From assembly GCA_015523565.1 (NCBI GenBank), contig WAKA01000227.1:1-13358 (forward strand): a stretch of DNA of 13,358 nucleotides. The letters are read 5' to 3'. This document shows positions 1,326 through 13,278 of this stretch, piece by piece (within the stretch, counting starts at the first letter, position 1; the number at the start of each line of letters is the position of its first letter). Source of the DNA: Candidatus Heimdallarchaeota archaeon. GTDB taxonomy: Archaea; Asgardarchaeota; Heimdallarchaeia; Heimdallarchaeales; Kariarchaeaceae. Below the pieces are notes generated by a model. It searched no databases. It saw nothing but the letters and a program-made list of their open reading frames with translations, and was not told the DNA's origin. The position numbers and the translations under genes are program-made.

Positions 1326-3791
1326 TTATATCTGTTTACGAACATGCAACTTTCGCACCGCGATAGCTACTAACGCCATAAATATTGGTATGAGTGAAAT
1401 TGGTGCTGGTGCACTTTCTGATGTTTCATTGGGCGGTGTGTGTGTCTGTGATAATGATGGATTCGATGTGTTGCTTGACATATCCGTTGATGTTTCACTT
1501 GTCGAGGCAGGTGTGGATGTGATTGCAGGCATTGTTGACAAGTCAATTGCAATTTCTGACACTTCCCATGTATTCACGTCTTGTGTCACTATCATTCCAT
1601 CAGTTGTTCTTGTCACAATCACTGAAACCTTGACCCAACCTAGTGTAATATTGCTTAAATCTGCCAAACTTCCATTATAATAGATTTTGCCAGTGTCTTG
1701 GTCAACAATTGTCAGAATGTAGTCTGTGGCATTGCCATTTGAGACCGTTATCGGCAGGGAAATGTCAAATGTGTAGTTCCTTAATTCATCCAGCCAACCT
1801 CGAACAGTGTATGCCATCTCAAAAAAGTCCATTGGCTTTACATGGAGGTAATCAAGAAGATACGATGGAACGTTTGATTCCTGCCACATTCCAAATACCA
1901 ATGAATAATTCCACATTACCCCATCTACCAAATCCACCAGTTGTTTCACGTGTGATGGCACATAATTTGTCGATTGCTTGATTCCCACAATTATATTTTC
2001 AAAATCCTGTTGGATGTCCCTTGACATTTTGGGGAAAATGCCTCGGTAATATGTATACATGTCCATAATGGATATATCACTGTAATGATGCGCATAGGAC
2101 ATCTGTGTATAGCTTAAATCCCAAGTCCAATCAAAGATCTCCCCGTATCCCAACTGCTCATATTGCTGCCAACTGAACCCATCGTGGGGATGGGAAAGAC
2201 CGAATGCATGTCCTGTCTCGTGCATTACCACAAAGGTAAATCCAAAAGACCTGTCCTCGAAGGAATCTATTTGCCAATCTACAGTTGCCGTATTTGCCCC
2301 TGCATTTTCAATCACCCAATAATAATTCTGGTAGACACTCGTTGTGTAATTGAACTCAAGTGATGTTACCCCTGAATAACTCATTATAGGTGTAAAATTC
2401 CCTCCACTTACATATTTCTCATACTCAAACGGATTCAAAAGATAAACGTTCACGGGTTGATCACTGTTGACGGTGGTTCGCAAAATGTTATTTGTATATC
2501 CGAATGAACTGTTGAAATATACATACGCCCCTGATGGAAGGGTTGTTTGTGTTGTCAACCATGGCTCAAGGTCAGGTGTAGGGTCACTCCATCTTTCATT
2601 GGCTGCGGCAACAACAAATGAAAAATTTTGCCCCTCATTGTCCGCCAACCCAAGAAATGCATCAAAAAGCCAATCATCTGGAAATCCAAACAAAAACACT
2701 GGTATTATCAAGTTTTCCTTGGTTGAACTATTGAACATTGTTGGTTTGATGCTCTCCAAATAACTGAGGATGTTCCATGAATCATATGAATGGTCTGTCG
2801 TATTCTTGGAACTTGCAAGTATGTTCATGAATGTACTGTCATTTTGGTAATCCCAGGTCCTTATGCTTGTTTGCCATGTCGCATAGGGATTCAATTGGGA
2901 ATATTGTTCCAACAGATAGGTTGTGTTCAATTTTGAAAGAAAGTCATAGTTTCCATTTGTAAGGTCAACTAAGACAAAATCAAAAGTGACTGTGTCATAC
3001 CCATAAATCGGTGAATAAATCCATGAAGGGATAAACCTTAATTCGATTGCCCTTTGCAAATGGTCAACCATGGCATCCATAAGACTTGTTTCATTCATTT
3101 GCGTAATGTGGGGAAACACATCACCCCGATAGTTTGTCGGACCTGCCGAAAAGTCAAACCAGAGAAGGGGTGCCTTGTGCCCTCCTCCAGATACCTGATA
3201 GGTCGCCCCATATGGTCTTGGATTGGAATACCCGTCAATGTCAAATGAAGATGCATTATAGTAATAATATTCAAAACCTGTGGGATCAGGGGTATATGTG
3301 TCAATAAAAACCATTGTCGGGTTTTGTATCCCCTCTCCGACCAGATAATCTTCCACTGGGTCTGATGGCACGTACCTTGCACTTTCTGAAAGATTTCCCA
3401 AGTAAAGCGGTGCCATTCCTACATTTGACCAATTATATATCTGATTCCTGAACTCTAGTATTTCACTGCTATTGAAATACCTGACATTATAAACCAAGGT
3501 GTAATTCACGTCAAAAACTGGCGAGGAACTGAAGAATGTCGGATATCTTTCAACTGGTGCATACCATTTGGGCAACCTCTGAAGAAAAGCATTTGTGTCC
3601 AAGTTCTGTGACATCATGAACCAAATGTCAATCTGAAAGGTGTAAGAATCATTCACGGATGGAATGGTGTCCACTAAATCATCAACATATGTCACGTTTT
3701 GTTGATGTTCCGCATTGGTAACTGAAACTGGAAAACTAGCAGTAACCAATATCCCACAAAACAATAACATTGCAACATTTCTTATGTGCAT
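1326..3791 (-). CDS. Secreted, cell-surface-anchored zinc metalloprotease (metzincin-type HExxHxxGxxH)
   Basis: Signal peptide MHIRNVAMLLFCGILVTASFPVSVTNA. HETGHAFGLSH at 2222-2190, followed by Met-turn-like TQMSY. Many N-x-S/T sequons, a Ser/Thr/Pro-rich linker, and a C-terminal P-hydrophobic helix-basic tail (APISLIPIFMALVAIAVRKLHVRKQI). Start moved from 3815 to 3791 because the 3815 ATG overlaps the TATA box. Confidence 0.85.
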   Translation of the reverse strand: MHIRNVAMLLFCGILVTASFPVSVTNAEHQQNVTYVDDLVDTIPSVNDSYTFQIDIWFMMSQNLDTNAFLQRLPKWYAPVERYPTFFSSSPVFDVNYTLVYNVRYFNSSEILEFRNQIYNWSNVGMAPLYLGNLSESARYVPSDPVEDYLVGEGIQNPTMVFIDTYTPDPTGFEYYYYNASSFDIDGYSNPRPYGATYQVSGGGHKAPLLWFDFSAGPTNYRGDVFPHITQMNETSLMDAMVDHLQRAIELRFIPSWIYSPIYGYDTVTFDFVLVDLTNGNYDFLSKLNTTYLLEQYSQLNPYATWQTSIRTWDYQNDSTFMNILASSKNTTDHSYDSWNILSYLESIKPTMFNSSTKENLIIPVFLFGFPDDWLFDAFLGLADNEGQNFSFVVAAANERWSDPTPDLEPWLTTQTTLPSGAYVYFNSSFGYTNNILRTTVNSDQPVNVYLLNPFEYEKYVSGGNFTPIMSYSGVTSLEFNYTTSVYQNYYWVIENAGANTATVDWQIDSFEDRSFGFTFVVMHETGHAFGLSHPHDGFSWQQYEQLGYGEIFDWTWDLSYTQMSYAHHYSDISIMDMYTYYRGIFPKMSRDIQQDFENIIVGIKQSTNYVPSHVKQLVDLVDGVMWNYSLVFGMWQESNVPSYLLDYLHVKPMDFFEMAYTVRGWLDELRNYTFDISLPITVSNGNATDYILTIVDQDTGKIYYNGSLADLSNITLGWVKVSVIVTRTTDGMIVTQDVNTWEVSEIAIDLSTMPAITSTPASTSETSTDMSSNTSNPSLSQTHTPPNETSESAPAPISLIPIFMALVAIAVRKLHVRKQI

Positions 3792-3814
3792 GGCAAAACA
3801 AAGGTAAAAACACA

Positions 3815-3820
3815 TATAAA
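3815..3820 (-). promoter_or_regulatory. Archaeal TATA box (TTTATA) for the protease
   Basis: TTTATA begins 29 nt upstream of ATG 3791, with purine-rich AAAAGG (BRE-like) a few bases further upstream. Confidence 0.6.
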
Positions 3821-7885: not shown

Positions 7886-8095
7886 CTATTTGTGTTTTTC
7901 ACTCAATTTGTTCAACGCCTTGTTATCGCGTTCTACATTTTCGTTGGTAAGATTCGGACCCTGAGTGATTGTATGGATCTTTTTAAGGTTTGGATTTATA
8001 GGTGTACTGCTTTTTGCATCTTTGTAAATTGCGAAAACAACAAACAAAATGAATACCCCCAAAAGTATTAGTCCCGGATAATCTGTGAGTGCCAT
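7886..8095 (-). CDS. Small single-pass membrane protein (69 aa), unknown function
   Basis: ATG start; N-terminal hydrophobic helix GLILLGVFILFVVFAIY followed by a polar, Lys/Asn-rich tail. It fills the gap between the MFS gene and korD on the same strand, with an AT-rich upstream region. Confidence 0.65.
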   Translation of the reverse strand: MALTDYPGLILLGVFILFVVFAIYKDAKSSTPINPNLKKIHTITQGPNLTNENVERDNKALNKLSEKHK

Positions 8096-8184: not shown

Positions 8185-9474
8185 TCAATATAACATGGGT
8201 GGATGTTCAAACCTTCTTTTTCTTCTATCAAGATGGTGTTTCCTTCTAAACACTACCAAGACAAACGCAGGTACTGCCAAAAAGATTGACGCAACAAATG
8301 AACCTTCTGTACTTCTAGAATAAAAAAATGGGGCAAGGGAATTTGCCACTGCTGTTCCCAATATACTCATTGATGTGGTCAGACCAAAAACAAAGGAAAA
8401 GTCAGACCTGTCAACAACTCGTCCAATGCGTGTGATTTCCATGGTGAAATATGTGGAAATTGCAAGGTTCAGAATAAACAACCCTGCAATGTAGAAATAA
8501 AGATTCAACTTTGAAAAGGACATTGACAATGTCCCTATTACCACCAATATCCATCCAAGTACTCGCATGTTCTCATCCTTGACATAATCATAGAGTTTTC
8601 CGACAACAGGTGCCCATATTACTTGGATCAGGGATGCAGCTCCAGTAATGAAGCCAACAAATGTCAGGTTTAATTTCAACACATTATATCCATATACTGC
8701 ATAAACTGATGATATCAGTCCAAATATCAACCCCGCCACCGTGAAGAGAAGAATGGCTTCCCAGATTCCATTTTCCCGAAGTGCTGAAAGATGTATCTTC
8801 CCTGCTTTTGGGGGGGAGGATAGATCCACGTCAATTTTTTCTTCTGGAAATATCTTGACAAAAACTACAGGCATGCTTTTCAATAATATTGAATATAAAA
8901 CGAAGTCTCCTGCAATAATAAAGAACGATGCGATTATTATTGTATCAGGGGGATAATGGTCAAGCAGAAACGCGAACAAATATGGCCCAAAAAAACTACC
9001 AAGCCCTACCATTGCAGATAACAACCCGTTTTTCATTCCTTTGTCCCTTTTTGAAACTGAGACAATTGCCCTTCCTGTCATGGCAAACATGTTGACTCCG
9101 AACCTGATAGAAGACAAGGCAATCATGTAGACAATTGGCAATGCTGAAAGATATACCAACCCGATTGCAATGATATATATTGAATAGCCCAACGCAAATG
9201 CCCTTGTCCGTCCAATCCTATCAGAAATGAGCCCTGCCGGCAATCTTGTGGCGGCTCCGACAAAAAACGCAACAGACCCGATTTGCCCCCACAATTTTAC
9301 TGTTTCCGTATCTGTCAATCCAAACTTCACTTGCAAATAAAGTGGAAAAATGGAAAAAAACCCTTTGAAAATAAAAAATCCCAGAAAATATGGAATAAGA
9401 ATCGGTACCAATTCAGTAACTGAAATGACAACGGTTGATTTATTTTCCACAGCATCCCAATTGATTGCTGTCAT
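8185..9474 (-). CDS. Major facilitator superfamily transporter
   Basis: About 12 hydrophobic segments in two halves, motif A GLISDRIGRTRA, and second-half equivalent GKLYDYVKD. The start is uncertain (ATG 9474 preferred over TTG 9504). Confidence 0.9.
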   Translation of the reverse strand: MTAINWDAVENKSTVVISVTELVPILIPYFLGFFIFKGFFSIFPLYLQVKFGLTDTETVKLWGQIGSVAFFVGAATRLPAGLISDRIGRTRAFALGYSIYIIAIGLVYLSALPIVYMIALSSIRFGVNMFAMTGRAIVSVSKRDKGMKNGLLSAMVGLGSFFGPYLFAFLLDHYPPDTIIIASFFIIAGDFVLYSILLKSMPVVFVKIFPEEKIDVDLSSPPKAGKIHLSALRENGIWEAILLFTVAGLIFGLISSVYAVYGYNVLKLNLTFVGFITGAASLIQVIWAPVVGKLYDYVKDENMRVLGWILVVIGTLSMSFSKLNLYFYIAGLFILNLAISTYFTMEITRIGRVVDRSDFSFVFGLTTSMSILGTAVANSLAPFFYSRSTEGSFVASIFLAVPAFVLVVFRRKHHLDRRKRRFEHPPMLY

Positions 9475-9610
9475 TTGTATTGTTTGGTTGTGGCAGTTTT
9501 TCAATGAACTGATGCCTTGGAAATTCCAATATCATTCCGAACCAATTAAAACATGTTTCTTTCATGTTTTGCATTCCGAATTTTCCCTTTTGCAGTTTTA
9601 CCTGTTGATT

Positions 9611-9651
9611 TTTTAATGGCTAAATTATAATTTTACCTGATAATTGGTGAT
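9611..9651 (+). promoter_or_regulatory. Putative TATA box (TTTTAA, 9611-9616) and SD (GGTGAT, 9646-9651) for the small peptide gene
   Basis: GGTGA ends 6 nt before ATG 9657. The palindrome AAATTATAATTT (9622-9633) lies between the two elements and contains an alternative TATA-like TTATAA. Confidence 0.5.
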
Positions 9652-9656
9652 GAAAA

Positions 9657-9803
9657 ATGAAGTTAATGGTAAAAAAATTGATCATTGCAATAATCCCATT
9701 TTTGGTAATGCTTGGAATAACTCTTGCTAGCGCTAATGGCTCTGAATTTCCTGGTGGGAATGAGACAGATGCTCCACGAAGTGGATGGGGATGGAGAAGA
9801 TAA
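9657..9803 (+). CDS. 48-aa secreted peptide precursor (not in the ORF track): MKLMVKKLIIAIIPFLVMLGITLASA|NGSEFPGGNETDAPRSGWGWRR
   Basis: Translated by hand from ATG 9657 to TAA 9801-9803. It has a tripartite Sec signal peptide (KK n-region, hydrophobic h-region, A-S-A cleavage motif), an archaeal SD, and the same orientation as the MCP. Confidence 0.75.
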   Translation: MKLMVKKLIIAIIPFLVMLGITLASANGSEFPGGNETDAPRSGWGWRR

Positions 9804-9811
9804 ATCCTTGA

Positions 9812-9866
9812 TTTCATTCTAAAATTAAAATTTGTTTTATCAAGAAAGGATTTTAATTTAATGAAA
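9812..9866. repeat. Imperfect AT-rich inverted repeat overlapping the MCP TATA box
   Basis: TTTCATT (9812-9818) pairs with AATGAAA (9860-9866), and AAATTAAAAT (9822-9831) pairs with ATTTTAATTT (9850-9859). TTTTAA at 9851 begins 29 nt upstream of ATG 9880. Confidence 0.5.
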
Positions 9867-9879
9867 ATAGAAATAGTTT

Positions 9880-11850
9880 ATGAATAAATTCCCATTATAT
9901 CGACTCTTCTCTGAAAGGCTGGTAGTGAAGATCATTGTAATGGTGCTTGTGGGGATATTGTTGATCGGGGGTCTGACAACTTATCGAAACCAGAAAATTT
10001 CACGCATTGCTCAACAACAGGAACTCTTGGTTGACACGAAATTTGACTTTTCACAAGTCTTGATTTTTACAGGGGATTTTGTCAAGAACAACACAGGTCT
10101 CTATGAAATTATCAATCAGTCATACCTCGACATCTTCCATGAAATTGATCAACTCAAAACTCTAATTACACCTTCGCTCTTGCCAGAACTTGATCAAATC
10201 CGCGGATTTGTCCAGAAGTCCTATGACCTTTCAATCAATACGAGTTTTGAACGGACATTACAAAAGGAAATTCCCGTCCAATTCAATTCGTTGCAAGAAT
10301 TCAATGGTGCCACTGACAGTATCTTCAAAATTTTATCTGAATGGAATACGTTATGGCTCAATGGATCTGCCCGTGACATCTTTCATCTCAAGTTTTACCA
10401 AATTCATGAGGAAATTGCAACTTTGGTGGGCGTTCAAGAAGACTATTCAAAAGGCATACTGCAAAAGTTCATGTTTGAGGATCAAGCAACTACTGCATTC
10501 AATTCATTGGTTAACCTTACAGCCTCCTATTTGGATGATTATCTTTCTGTGTTGAACACAACCTCGGACAATGCCCTTCTACAGATTAGAGATAATTTTC
10601 AGATGTTAAGGAATTATCTAAAAGGAATTGATGGTGCATTTAATCCATTGCCCAATGATTTGCTCTCTTGGCTAAACATGACATCTAATACTGGGATTTC
10701 TGGAATTAATGCCACTGTACTTGTTGACAAAATGATAAGTGCTGTTGAAAATTCGATTGCCTCGAATCTTTCTTTTTTTGAGACAATATTTCCCCAATCC
10801 CCAATATCTGTTGCCAAAAGAGAACTCAGTCCAATAAGTGCCGCGATGCAACTGCTAAGAAACCAAATCATATTACAGGAAAATGGTTTTTTGGTAATTT
10901 CTGCCATTAACTTCATCTATCCCACAACAATAAATATTCAAATCAACTATTCAGGTTTCACATCTCGTGTTGATCAAATCTTGGAAGCATTGACACACCA
11001 ATTGGATGACCCTGGATTTGTGATTCTCAGCTTTTCCCTATTGCTTGCTACCTTAGGTCTTTTTGTCTTCATTCTAAATACCAATCTTATCCAGCCAATC
11101 AAGAAAATGGAGGCAATGGCGAAGGAAGTCAACAAAGGGAATCTTGCTGTTGAATCCGATGATTGGATGCGTGATGATGAAATCGGCGTTTTGGGTCGTG
11201 CCCTCAATGGGATGGTTGCCTCATTAAGGGCCATGACCAACAGATTGCAACAATCAACAGAACAGGTTTCTGAAACAAGCCAAAAACTCAGTGATATAAC
11301 AAAAGAGGCAAATGAAAGCACTACTCAAATCACCAACACAATGCAACACATAACCCAAGGGGCGTCAGAACAAGTGCAAATGGTGAACAGGGTCATGTCC
11401 ACCCTACTTTCATTTGAATCCACTGTCAACCAGATATTGAAAGATGTTTCAAAAACATTGGAAACCATCATAAAAATATCTCTCCAAACCAATGTTCTTG
11501 CCTTGAACGCAGGTGTTGAAGCCGCCCGTGCAGGTGAATATGGAAGGGGATTTGCCGTGGTTGCCAACAATATGCGTTCCCTTTCCGATAGGGTGAAGGA
11601 AGCCACTGAAGAAGTGGGTAACTTGTCTGAAAGTATTGGTGATAGGCTTCGAGAACTGATCAATAACCTCGAACAAGACCTGAACAATGTCCTCTCTGTC
11701 TCTGAAGAACAGGCAAGCTCTACAGAAGAGGTGACTGCCGCTGTGGAAGAAATAAGCTCACAGGTTCAGATGATTGATAATTCCATGTCTGATCTTGTTA
11801 AACTTATTCAACAATCATTTAGTGAAATCTCCGAAATCCAGACAAAATAA
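9880..11850 (+). CDS. Methyl-accepting chemotaxis-like receptor (TM1 - ~340-aa extracellular domain - TM2 - HAMP - short MCP signalling domain)
   Basis: HAMP PIKKM...GNL...[13 protein letters not shown]; hairpin tip [27 protein letters not shown]; methylation-consensus match [10 protein letters not shown] (11713-11742); multiple sequons between the two TMs. Confidence 0.93.
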
Positions 11851-11916: not shown

Positions 11917-13278
11917 ATCGAAAGGAACTTTGAAATTCATAAATTCGGTGGGACAACAACAGGAACTCAGAATGGTCTGAAAAGAATTTTTGAAATTGTC
12001 AGGGATGCAAGGACAATCCCAATCTTGGTCGTCTCCGCGGCGACTGGTGTCACAGACCTTCTGATATCCATTCTTGAAAATCTGCATGAGAACAAAATAC
12101 CAAGATACATTGATGAAATCGTTAAGATGCATGACGAACTTAGCCCTAACCAACTAAGCAAAAACCAAAAATTCATGGAGCAAGTTCTTAGGTTACAACG
12201 AGTCCTATATGGAATCTGTTATACGGAAGAACTCTCAGAAACCCTTCATGACTTGGTTTTAAGCTTTGGTGAACGGCTGATCACTTTTGTCATAATGGAT
12301 GTGTTGAAAGAACTAAATCGCCCAATCCATATTGTCTATCCTGAAGAAACATTGATCACAAACGGTCGGGCATCTCATGCCAGTATTGACCTTGTCTCCT
12401 CGGAACCATTGCTTGTCTCAAAATTAGAATCGATTTTTGCTCAGTCCAATAATCCAGTCATAATAATTCCCGGATTTTATGGAATCTCTCCCCAAGGGAA
12501 AATCAATCTGCTTGGAAGATCGGGCACCGACTATTCTGCTTCTGCTGTTGCATATCTGCTGAATTCAAAAAACCTGACAATATGGAAGGATGTACCCGGT
12601 TTTCTCAGTGCAGATCCAAGGGTTGTTCCCAATGCCCATAAAATTCCTGTGCTGAACTATGGGGAGGCATCAGAGCTATCCCATTTTGGTGCGAAGATTC
12701 TCCACCATCGTGCGGTGTTGCCTGCCAAACTGAAAAACATCCCCATTTACATCAGGAACATCTATAATCCCGATGAAACAACACTTATCACCTCTGATGG
12801 GATTATCGACAGGAACAAAATCATCAAAAGCATTTCTTATAAGAAAGGTCTTGCAATCCTGAAATTCTTTAATTCAATTGGAGCATCTGAAGCAGGCGTT
12901 ATGGATGAAATCACCACCTCGCTAAATCGCCATGGGATTGACATAATCTCTGTTGCCACATCCCAGACATGCATTGCCTTTTTAGTGGATAAAAAAGGGG
13001 CGGAACAAAAGTTGGGAACTATAGAATCCGAGTGCAGTTCAATTGCCGAGGCAATGGCAGTTGAAAATGACATCGCATTGGTTGCATGTGTCGGGGAAGA
13101 ATTGTCACATACCCCTGGTGTCGCATTCAAGGTTTTTGGTGCATTGGCTCGCAAGGGCATCAATGTGGACCTAATTTCTGCAGGTGCCTCAACATCTGCT
13201 CTCCACTTCACCGTAAAGGAAAAGGATTTGGACAATGCTGTTTTGGCCATTCATGATGATCTAATCAACGGACAATAG
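11917..13278 (+). CDS. lysC: Aspartate kinase with two C-terminal ACT domains; true start lies upstream of the ORF-track start and is non-canonical or uncertain
   Basis: The in-frame upstream extension encodes FEIHKFGGT (K at 11941), then VVSA..GVTD, SFGERL, PGFYG, LGRSGTDYSAS, IWKDVPGFLSADPR, ELSHFGAKILH and two ACT repeats. Confidence 0.92.
   Translation: MERNFEIHKFGGTTTGTQNGLKRIFEIVRDARTIPILVVSAATGVTDLLISILENLHENKIPRYIDEIVKMHDELSPNQLSKNQKFMEQVLRLQRVLYGICYTEELSETLHDLVLSFGERLITFVIMDVLKELNRPIHIVYPEETLITNGRASHASIDLVSSEPLLVSKLESIFAQSNNPVIIIPGFYGISPQGKINLLGRSGTDYSASAVAYLLNSKNLTIWKDVPGFLSADPRVVPNAHKIPVLNYGEASELSHFGAKILHHRAVLPAKLKNIPIYIRNIYNPDETTLITSDGIIDRNKIIKSISYKKGLAILKFFNSIGASEAGVMDEITTSLNRHGIDIISVATSQTCIAFLVDKKGAEQKLGTIESECSSIAEAMAVENDIALVACVGEELSHTPGVAFKVFGALARKGINVDLISAGASTSALHFTVKEKDLDNAVLAIHDDLINGQ

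Follow-up and report, generated by a model that had tools for sequence, protein, structure and literature searches.

The window analyzed here, a stretch of 13,358 nucleotides, is the whole of contig C227 from a Candidatus Heimdallarchaeota genome (G000; 3.57 Mb, about 90% complete). It carries the 48-codon ORF reported in a preliminary description of this DNA and, 76 nt downstream in the same orientation, the ORF of a methyl-accepting chemoreceptor (MCP); a divergent MFS transporter gene lies upstream of the pair and an aspartokinase gene beyond it (Table 1). Elsewhere in the window, the reverse strand encodes an 829-aa secreted protein (1326-3815) with an HEXXH motif (weak M10/M12 metallopeptidase matches) and a Ser/Thr-rich linker followed by a C-terminal anchor, as well as a 69-aa single-TM microprotein (7886-8095) with no Pfam match, which was called in the strain contig L022 and is absent from the slot in the related genome G001.

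Table 1. Features around the peptide gene and the chemoreceptor gene, in order of position in the window.
Feature	Position	Strand	Basis or remark
MFS transporter, divergent	8185..9474	-	PF07690; context, unlinked to peptide
Conserved element TTTCCC-N4-GCWG-K-TTT, 18 bp	9582..9599	+	Just upstream of peptide promoter
AT box, likely TATA of peptide gene	9609..9617	+	Alternative to TTATAA at 9625-9630
Shine-Dalgarno-like GGTGA	9646..9650	+	6 nt before ATG; paralogues have GGAGG at the equivalent place
Peptide ORF, 48 codons, secreted-peptide family of Heimdallarchaeia	9657..9803	+	Profile, selection, gene call
Predicted Sec-type leader, conserved, KKL-x-IA-x-x-P	9657..9734	+	Alignments, hydropathy; cleavage after codon 26 or 28
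Variable mature peptide, 22 or 20 aa (predicted)	9735..9800	+	Net charge 0, Trp/Arg end, no Cys
Polymorphic hotspot in mature peptide	9758-9777	+	4 of 13 SNPs: 2 synonymous, 2 nonsynonymous
Purine-rich BRE-like stretch and TTTTAATT, probable leaderless promoter of the MCP gene	9841..9858	+	Suggested by motif and position
Class I methyl-accepting chemoreceptor, 656 aa	9880..11850	+	Pfam, TM scan
Extracellular sensor, all-alpha, four-helix-bundle/HBM-like (modeled)	9982..11019	+	AF2 model, 10 N-glycosylation sequons
Aspartokinase	12025..13278	+	PF00696 and ACT; also follows the MCP gene in G001 (synteny)

On the sequence evidence, the 48-codon ORF is a real gene and more than a chance frame. With a profile built without any G000 sequence, all five family peptides of this genome came out on top of 78,927 frames, the window's ORF ranking second (E = 7.6e-8), and the next frame outside the family had an E value of 0.12. 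The leader codons are evidently under purifying selection (pN of 0.18 to 0.28 against pS of 0.63 to 0.79, the window's peptide being compared with three paralogues), and the ORF was also predicted by the gene caller in L022. We rejected a 5′ remnant of a longer secreted protein, since close relatives are all equally short; generic signal-peptide similarity, since the profile selects short frames and not long secreted proteins; and a class III pilin leader, since inspection found no K/R-G/A site ahead of the hydrophobic stretch. Hydropathy and alignment give the peptide an n-h-c anatomy with its hydrophobic segment at residues 8 to 26, and Sec export followed by cleavage is predicted. The A-S-A site with a 22-aa product that had been proposed earlier is one of two candidates: the cut may fall between A-S-A and N (22-mer) or between A-N-G and S (20-mer), and the latter agrees with the V-x-G ending of many leaders in the family. 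The peptide contains no Cys and matches no Pfam profile.

A first genome search returned two paralogues, alike in leader and unrelated in their short tails, and iterated profiles gave a family of about 25 members, five of them in G000. Most members come from one taxonomic family, with two weakly scoring ones from another. Their mature parts, 15 to 45 residues long, are mutually unrelated and nearly all have one or two Cys, the window's peptide alone in its taxonomic family lacking Cys; none of the family peptides has a Pfam, NCBIfam, or ESM Atlas match above noise. A literature search of incomplete coverage found no published account of these peptides, and the family of short exported peptides in Heimdallarchaeia is apparently undescribed so far. 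The earlier reading of the ORF as a secreted-peptide gene missed by annotation, here in an Asgard archaeon, is supported, and plausibly the peptide serves as a signal. It is highly improbable that the product keeps its leader and acts as a small surface protein or regulator anchored in the membrane. The hydrophobic leader does make up more than half of the product, and its conservation goes beyond what a signal peptide usually needs, but alignment places small residues at -3/-1 after the hydrophobic stretch in nearly all members, and the tails bear no relation to one another.

The 18-bp element upstream of the peptide gene occurs only three times in the 3.57 Mb of G000, each time 75 to 88 nt before a family peptide (the window, C193, and C36); the pattern was derived from these same three sites, and with a leave-one-out PWM the chance is about 1e-4 per site. 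It also stands ahead of the peptide on G002:C18, with a variant ahead of that on G001:C60. Outside the genus, matches to the element lay mostly within coding sequence and none preceded a peptide gene; a class-wide site was rejected on the mostly coding location of these matches. The element is a probable transcription factor site and probably marks a subfamily of self-contained, co-regulated cassettes. Both motifs previously assigned to the peptide gene, a TATA box (TTATAA) and the Shine-Dalgarno-like GGTGA, are present, but they cannot both be used, because transcription from the box at 9625 would begin at about 9651-9656, past the Shine-Dalgarno sequence. The AT box farther upstream lies +21 to +28 from the element, an offset about equal to that of the AT boxes in four paralogues, and by consensus it is the likelier TATA box of the peptide gene. 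The MCP gene has a TATA-like box at -29 to -22 from its ATG and no Shine-Dalgarno sequence; its orthologues need promoters of their own, because the upstream gene is divergent in both, and the MCP gene of the window would likewise be transcribed from its own promoter. A sigma-70 promoter and terminator scan, a model unsuited to archaea, gave nothing above shuffled sequences.

Pfam matches to PF00015 (98.4 bits; cutoff, 34.6) and HAMP (37.1 bits; cutoff, 25) confirmed the chemoreceptor-like nature of the downstream gene. Its product runs from TM1 (residues 14-32) through the sensor (35-380) and TM2 (381-399) to HAMP (401-451) and the signaling domain (492-653), and it has orthologues in G001 (53% overall identity) and G002 (38%). 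No Pfam family, including HBM and 4HB_MCP, matches residues 35-380, in agreement with the large extracellular domain without a known family that had been described, and this sensor domain was found in only 3 of 83 genomes of the class, all from the same genus. An AF2 model of the sensor (pLDDT of 57 overall, 66 to 92 in blocks over sensor residues 160 to 270) is all-alpha. Of the two stacked four-helix modules expected of an HBM domain, it shows one with confidence, the distal bundle, whereas its proximal half has a pLDDT under 50. The best chemoreceptor match of this model, itself of modest confidence, was the McpS LBD (Z of 8.8, rmsd of 3.2, 134 residues aligned), with Z of 7.3 for TorS and 7.0 for PilJ, in a range (under 13) that may be generic for helical bundles. 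ESM features for 4HB/TarH/HBM scored 0.86 to 0.88 on the sensor, a lead only; Foldseek on the whole MCP gave signaling-domain matches only, and an atlas fold search with the sensor gave nothing above a TM score of 0.45 by query.

Like the HBM and four-helix-bundle chemoreceptors (McpS, McpQ, McpK, and CtpL; the TorS sensor; PilJ), the window's MCP has two TM helices separated by a large extracellular domain, modeled as all-helical, and then HAMP and a signaling hairpin; unlike theirs, its sensor lacks a Pfam HBM/4HB match and, at 346 aa, is larger than the McpS LBD, with about 10% identity. For HBM domains, the ligands are organic acids or binding proteins in the loaded state (PMC5126104). The MCP is an ordinary orphan class I chemoreceptor with a genus-restricted sensor modeled as helical and HBM-like, and its ligand is most likely a small molecule. 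The remark that the window holds no che genes is correct but says little: each of the 13 MCPs of G000 lies on a contig other than the two with CheW (C203 and C108, which have five CheW-domain matches), where genes resembling those for CheA, CheB, CheY, and CheC, by sequence likeness rather than profile score, stand beside the CheW genes. The orphan state is the rule for MCPs in G000.

In Halobacterium BasB/BasT and CosB/CosT, the transducer's partner is a solute-binding protein with a lipobox that takes amino acids or osmolytes (PMC7289035), and the consulted passages of that paper list no peptide-ligand transducer. Each of these systems joins an archaeal two-TM transducer to a secreted partner, which makes them the closest archaeal precedent for an MCP that is served by an exported product; unlike in BasB/BasT, the partner in the window is a 48-aa peptide with no Cys and no Pfam match, and no lipobox solute-binding protein is involved. 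Elsewhere in G000 (C95:18204-22197), a gene for a 704-aa secreted solute-binding-protein-like product lies 85 nt upstream of that for a two-TM MCP, a BasB/BasT-type layout.

The dedicated peptide-MCP module that the preliminary description had envisaged was not supported. The peptide gene is absent beside both orthologous MCPs, in G001 and G002, a comparison comprising two orthologues in genomes 82 to 89% complete; such absence is an outcome that the preliminary description itself had named as counting against the module. G001 keeps the order MFS - X - MCP - aspartokinase, X being a 280-aa membrane gene, and has no peptide ORF in the slot upstream of the MCP orthologue; the G002 orthologue has a divergent transporter-like gene upstream and no peptide gene. 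Of the remaining 12 MCPs of G000, not one has a family peptide alongside, and no family member lies on an MCP-bearing contig in G001, G002, G004, or G006. A search of genome contigs for loci related to that of the MCP gave no match, the metagenome search with the MCP returned generic MCP signaling domains alone and no sensor match, and homologue searches yielded only strain variants of the peptide and the MCP. We also rejected the MFS transporter as a partner, since its orthologues in four relatives (G001, G002, G003, and G006) have no family peptide nearby. Other family members likewise have neighbors that occur without them: in G001:C6, the C45-peptidase gene and the 555-aa gene found on either side of the G002:C18 peptide stand next to each other, with no peptide; three G001 homologues of the TM-wHTH neighbor of the C36 peptide all lack one; and so does the G002 counterpart of the tRNA-synthetase-like neighbor of the C193 peptide. 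For about 20 peptide loci, the chance of one MCP neighbor is about 0.08 (downstream) to 0.16 (either side). The adjacency is compatible with chance. Since relatives have retained the receptor and lack the peptide beside it, the placement looks accidental. We are highly confident of the reality of the gene, of its family, of the shared element, and of the nonconserved neighborhood.

It is very unlikely that the peptide is nonetheless the cognate ligand of the adjacent MCP, either through recent species-specific recruitment or as a pair acting in trans in relatives. Beyond the closeness and common orientation of the two genes, receptor-like genes do accompany other members of the family and the sensor is large and without an assigned family, but the peptide is missing beside both orthologues, no other member shares a contig with an MCP in the four genomes named above, the chance of one such neighbor is appreciable, and the promoter signals of the two genes are separate. 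G000, G001, and G002 each have both the peptide family and the sensor family, and the searches of G003 turned up neither of them; yet G001 retains a 45% identical sensor and no similar core. For a pair in trans, the G002:C18 core is loosely similar, starting with NG-x-E and ending in RR. A literature search of incomplete coverage found no published chemoreceptor encoded beside its own peptide.

Strain contig L022 differs from the window by 13 SNPs over a 9.7-kb overlap. None falls in the leader, the MFS gene, or the aspartokinase gene; three fall in the MCP gene, including two conservative changes in the sensor, and the cluster of four in the mature core has a probability of about 3e-4 under a uniform rate, after correction. 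This cluster is probably one imported allele. The window's DNA is present in hydrothermal-vent metagenomes, one vent run containing both peptide alleles at low depth; a search of sequencing runs listed no RNA run with this DNA. Amino acid changes in both core and sensor, with none in the MFS transporter or the aspartokinase, speak for the MCP as receptor; against it, run X1 has the window's peptide allele beside L022's sensor alleles, weakly, as the contigs are unphased.

The strain variation agrees with a peptide of the identity type, with an antagonistic one, or with relaxed constraint. Under relaxed constraint, the window's copy would be a decaying or drifting duplicate with an intact promoter and leader and an unconstrained core without a disulfide, which we consider quite unlikely. 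It is the one Cys-free member in its taxonomic family, and the codons of F31 (TTT) and W46 (TGG) are each one base short of a Cys codon, but many codons lie one step from Cys by chance. The SNPs do cluster in the core, yet all four keep the frame and resemble one imported divergent allele; degenerate copies exist elsewhere (L110 and G006:C166), but frame, stop codon, Shine-Dalgarno sequence, element, and leader are intact in both alleles here. As a Cys-free member, the window's peptide may have changed or lost its function.

The best hint of signaling by the family is the pairing of a sister subfamily with TPR genes. Four members, with longer, two-Cys, Pro-ended tails, lie 3 to 16 nt upstream of such genes, at G000:C221:19567-21662 (L042), G001:C130+C114 (L077 and L148; the two contigs join via a 55-nt overlap), G002:C53 (L043), and G002:C158 (L044). 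The pair is conserved between G000 and G001, whose TPR proteins are 33% identical, and the sister TPR proteins are 638, 657, and 684 aa long. A family peptide is found at 1 of 19 TPR genes in G000 and at none of about 25 further TPR loci whose upstream DNA is visible; the chance of at least three TPR neighbors is about 3e-4 to 7e-3, kin not being independent. Both in G000 and in G001, the pair lies downstream of a homologous gene, which is MinD/ParA-like in G000. Two distant, Cys-free members (G070:C14, L194; G072:C50, L195) are divergent from large Lrp-like genes of 450 to 510 aa, one of them tandemly duplicated.

RRNPP systems are defined by a propeptide of 10 to 100 aa and an adjacent intracellular TPR receptor of 250 to 500 aa (PMC10075063). 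Like the RRNPP pairs of Bacillota (Rap-Phr, PlcR-PapR, NprR-NprX, and AimR-AimP; PMC10075063), the family comprises small, putatively Sec-exported propeptides with a variable core, and the sister subfamily lies directly upstream of cytoplasmic TPR genes. Unlike those pairs, it has an archaeal host and TPR proteins of 638 to 684 aa with no demonstrated sequence homology, and re-import and TPR binding are putative here. The sister pairs thus appear to resemble RRNPP systems in size, export-like character, and adjacency, though not in receptor length. In the window, the 48-aa product lies within the propeptide range (PMC10075063), but its neighbor is a 656-aa membrane MCP without TPRs, and the two are adjacent here only and not in G001 or G002.

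It is also rather unlikely that the family consists of antagonistic bacteriocin-like or microhalocin-like peptides, in which the leader exports a fast-evolving toxic core, the element co-induces the copies, the cassettes move, and the MCP is unrelated. Leader-core antimicrobial peptides such as Sec-dependent bacteriocins and microhalocins have a conserved leader, a variable core, a frequent disulfide, and a mobile position. The present family has all of these, with cores that often have two Cys and a position that wanders; in addition, the window's peptide has a Trp/Arg end, strain-level variation is confined to the core, and the C193 copy adjoins an Hsp70-like/Apyc1-like cluster. Unlike in those systems, however, the window's core is neutral (most cores of the family are neutral or acidic, and very short), and no NCBIfam or Pfam match rises above noise. 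No modifying enzyme, exporter or other transporter, or immunity gene is linked to the members in a conserved way, and the TPR pairing of the sister subfamily suits signaling better.

Known archaeal quorum signals are carboxy-AHLs or unidentified small molecules, the Haloferax signal resisting proteinase K, and no gene-encoded peptide signal in archaea is named in PMC12240190. What archaeal quorum sensing, known to control motility or shape (PMC12240190), has in common with the proposal made here is a secreted signal. In our preferred explanation, which we give roughly an even chance of being correct, the window's peptide would be a strain-variable signal acting in trans. The ORF would be a free-standing cassette with its own upstream element, promoter, and Shine-Dalgarno sequence, occupying in this species, by happenstance, the variable slot that separates the MCP gene from the MFS gene. 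Its product would be exported via the conserved leader, which is cut to leave a peptide of 20 to 22 residues, and the released core, differing among paralogues, species, and even strains, would serve as a strain- or species-specific extracellular signal for a receptor encoded elsewhere. The MCP would be independently transcribed, feed Che proteins encoded on other contigs, and sense a small molecule.

The signaling role of the window's peptide is borrowed from the sister subfamilies, because its own subfamily has no conserved receptor neighbor, and those subfamilies are linked to it by the short leader only. The family would work like leader-core pheromone systems, of which it is at most a candidate member. 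More tentatively, Heimdallarchaeia could possess leader-conserved, hypervariable secreted peptides for cell-to-cell or kin signaling. Some would have a linked TPR or Lrp-like receptor; others, the window's peptide among them, would be unlinked cassettes under shared regulation, perceived in trans and possibly through chemoreceptors. Heimdallarchaeia being the class of Asgard archaea nearest to eukaryotes, a family of variable exported peptides there, many of them looped by a disulfide, would be relevant to the origin of communication of the peptide-hormone type. Tests of ligand-receptor pairing are better directed at the conserved peptide-TPR loci than at the peptide-MCP neighborhood, and the family offers cheap, concrete test objects in synthetic peptides and soluble TPR proteins.

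Several further loci illustrate the variety of the family. The C36 peptide has an orthologue, P0007, with 84% nucleotide identity and a different gene context: at L113:777-1627 its ORF runs across the stop codon of a short DUF285 gene, and no upstream element precedes it, a placement that reflects either a recent relocation or an assembly join. A tandem repeat array (G000:C36:4000-4200; L021) begins immediately 3′ of the C36 peptide stop codon. At G000:C193:57444-64234 (L020 and L228), the C193 peptide is convergent with a gene cluster that includes an 898-aa Hsp70-like gene and an Apyc1/metallo-beta-lactamase-like gene, a possible defense or accessory island. Degenerate second copies of peptide genes at L110:372-760 and on G006:C166 (L197) point to duplication and decay within the family, and G006 has three near-identical intact copies besides. 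The orthologous peptides at G000:C161:2252-2398 and on G001:C32 (L026 and L032), syntenic upstream of a HEAT-repeat gene, share a nearly identical two-Cys core and represent one family member whose core is conserved between species. Two short frames at G000:C31:9281-9442 and C204:1958-2128, each with a signal-like start and a tail that contains Cys, do not reach the family threshold and are possible distant members.
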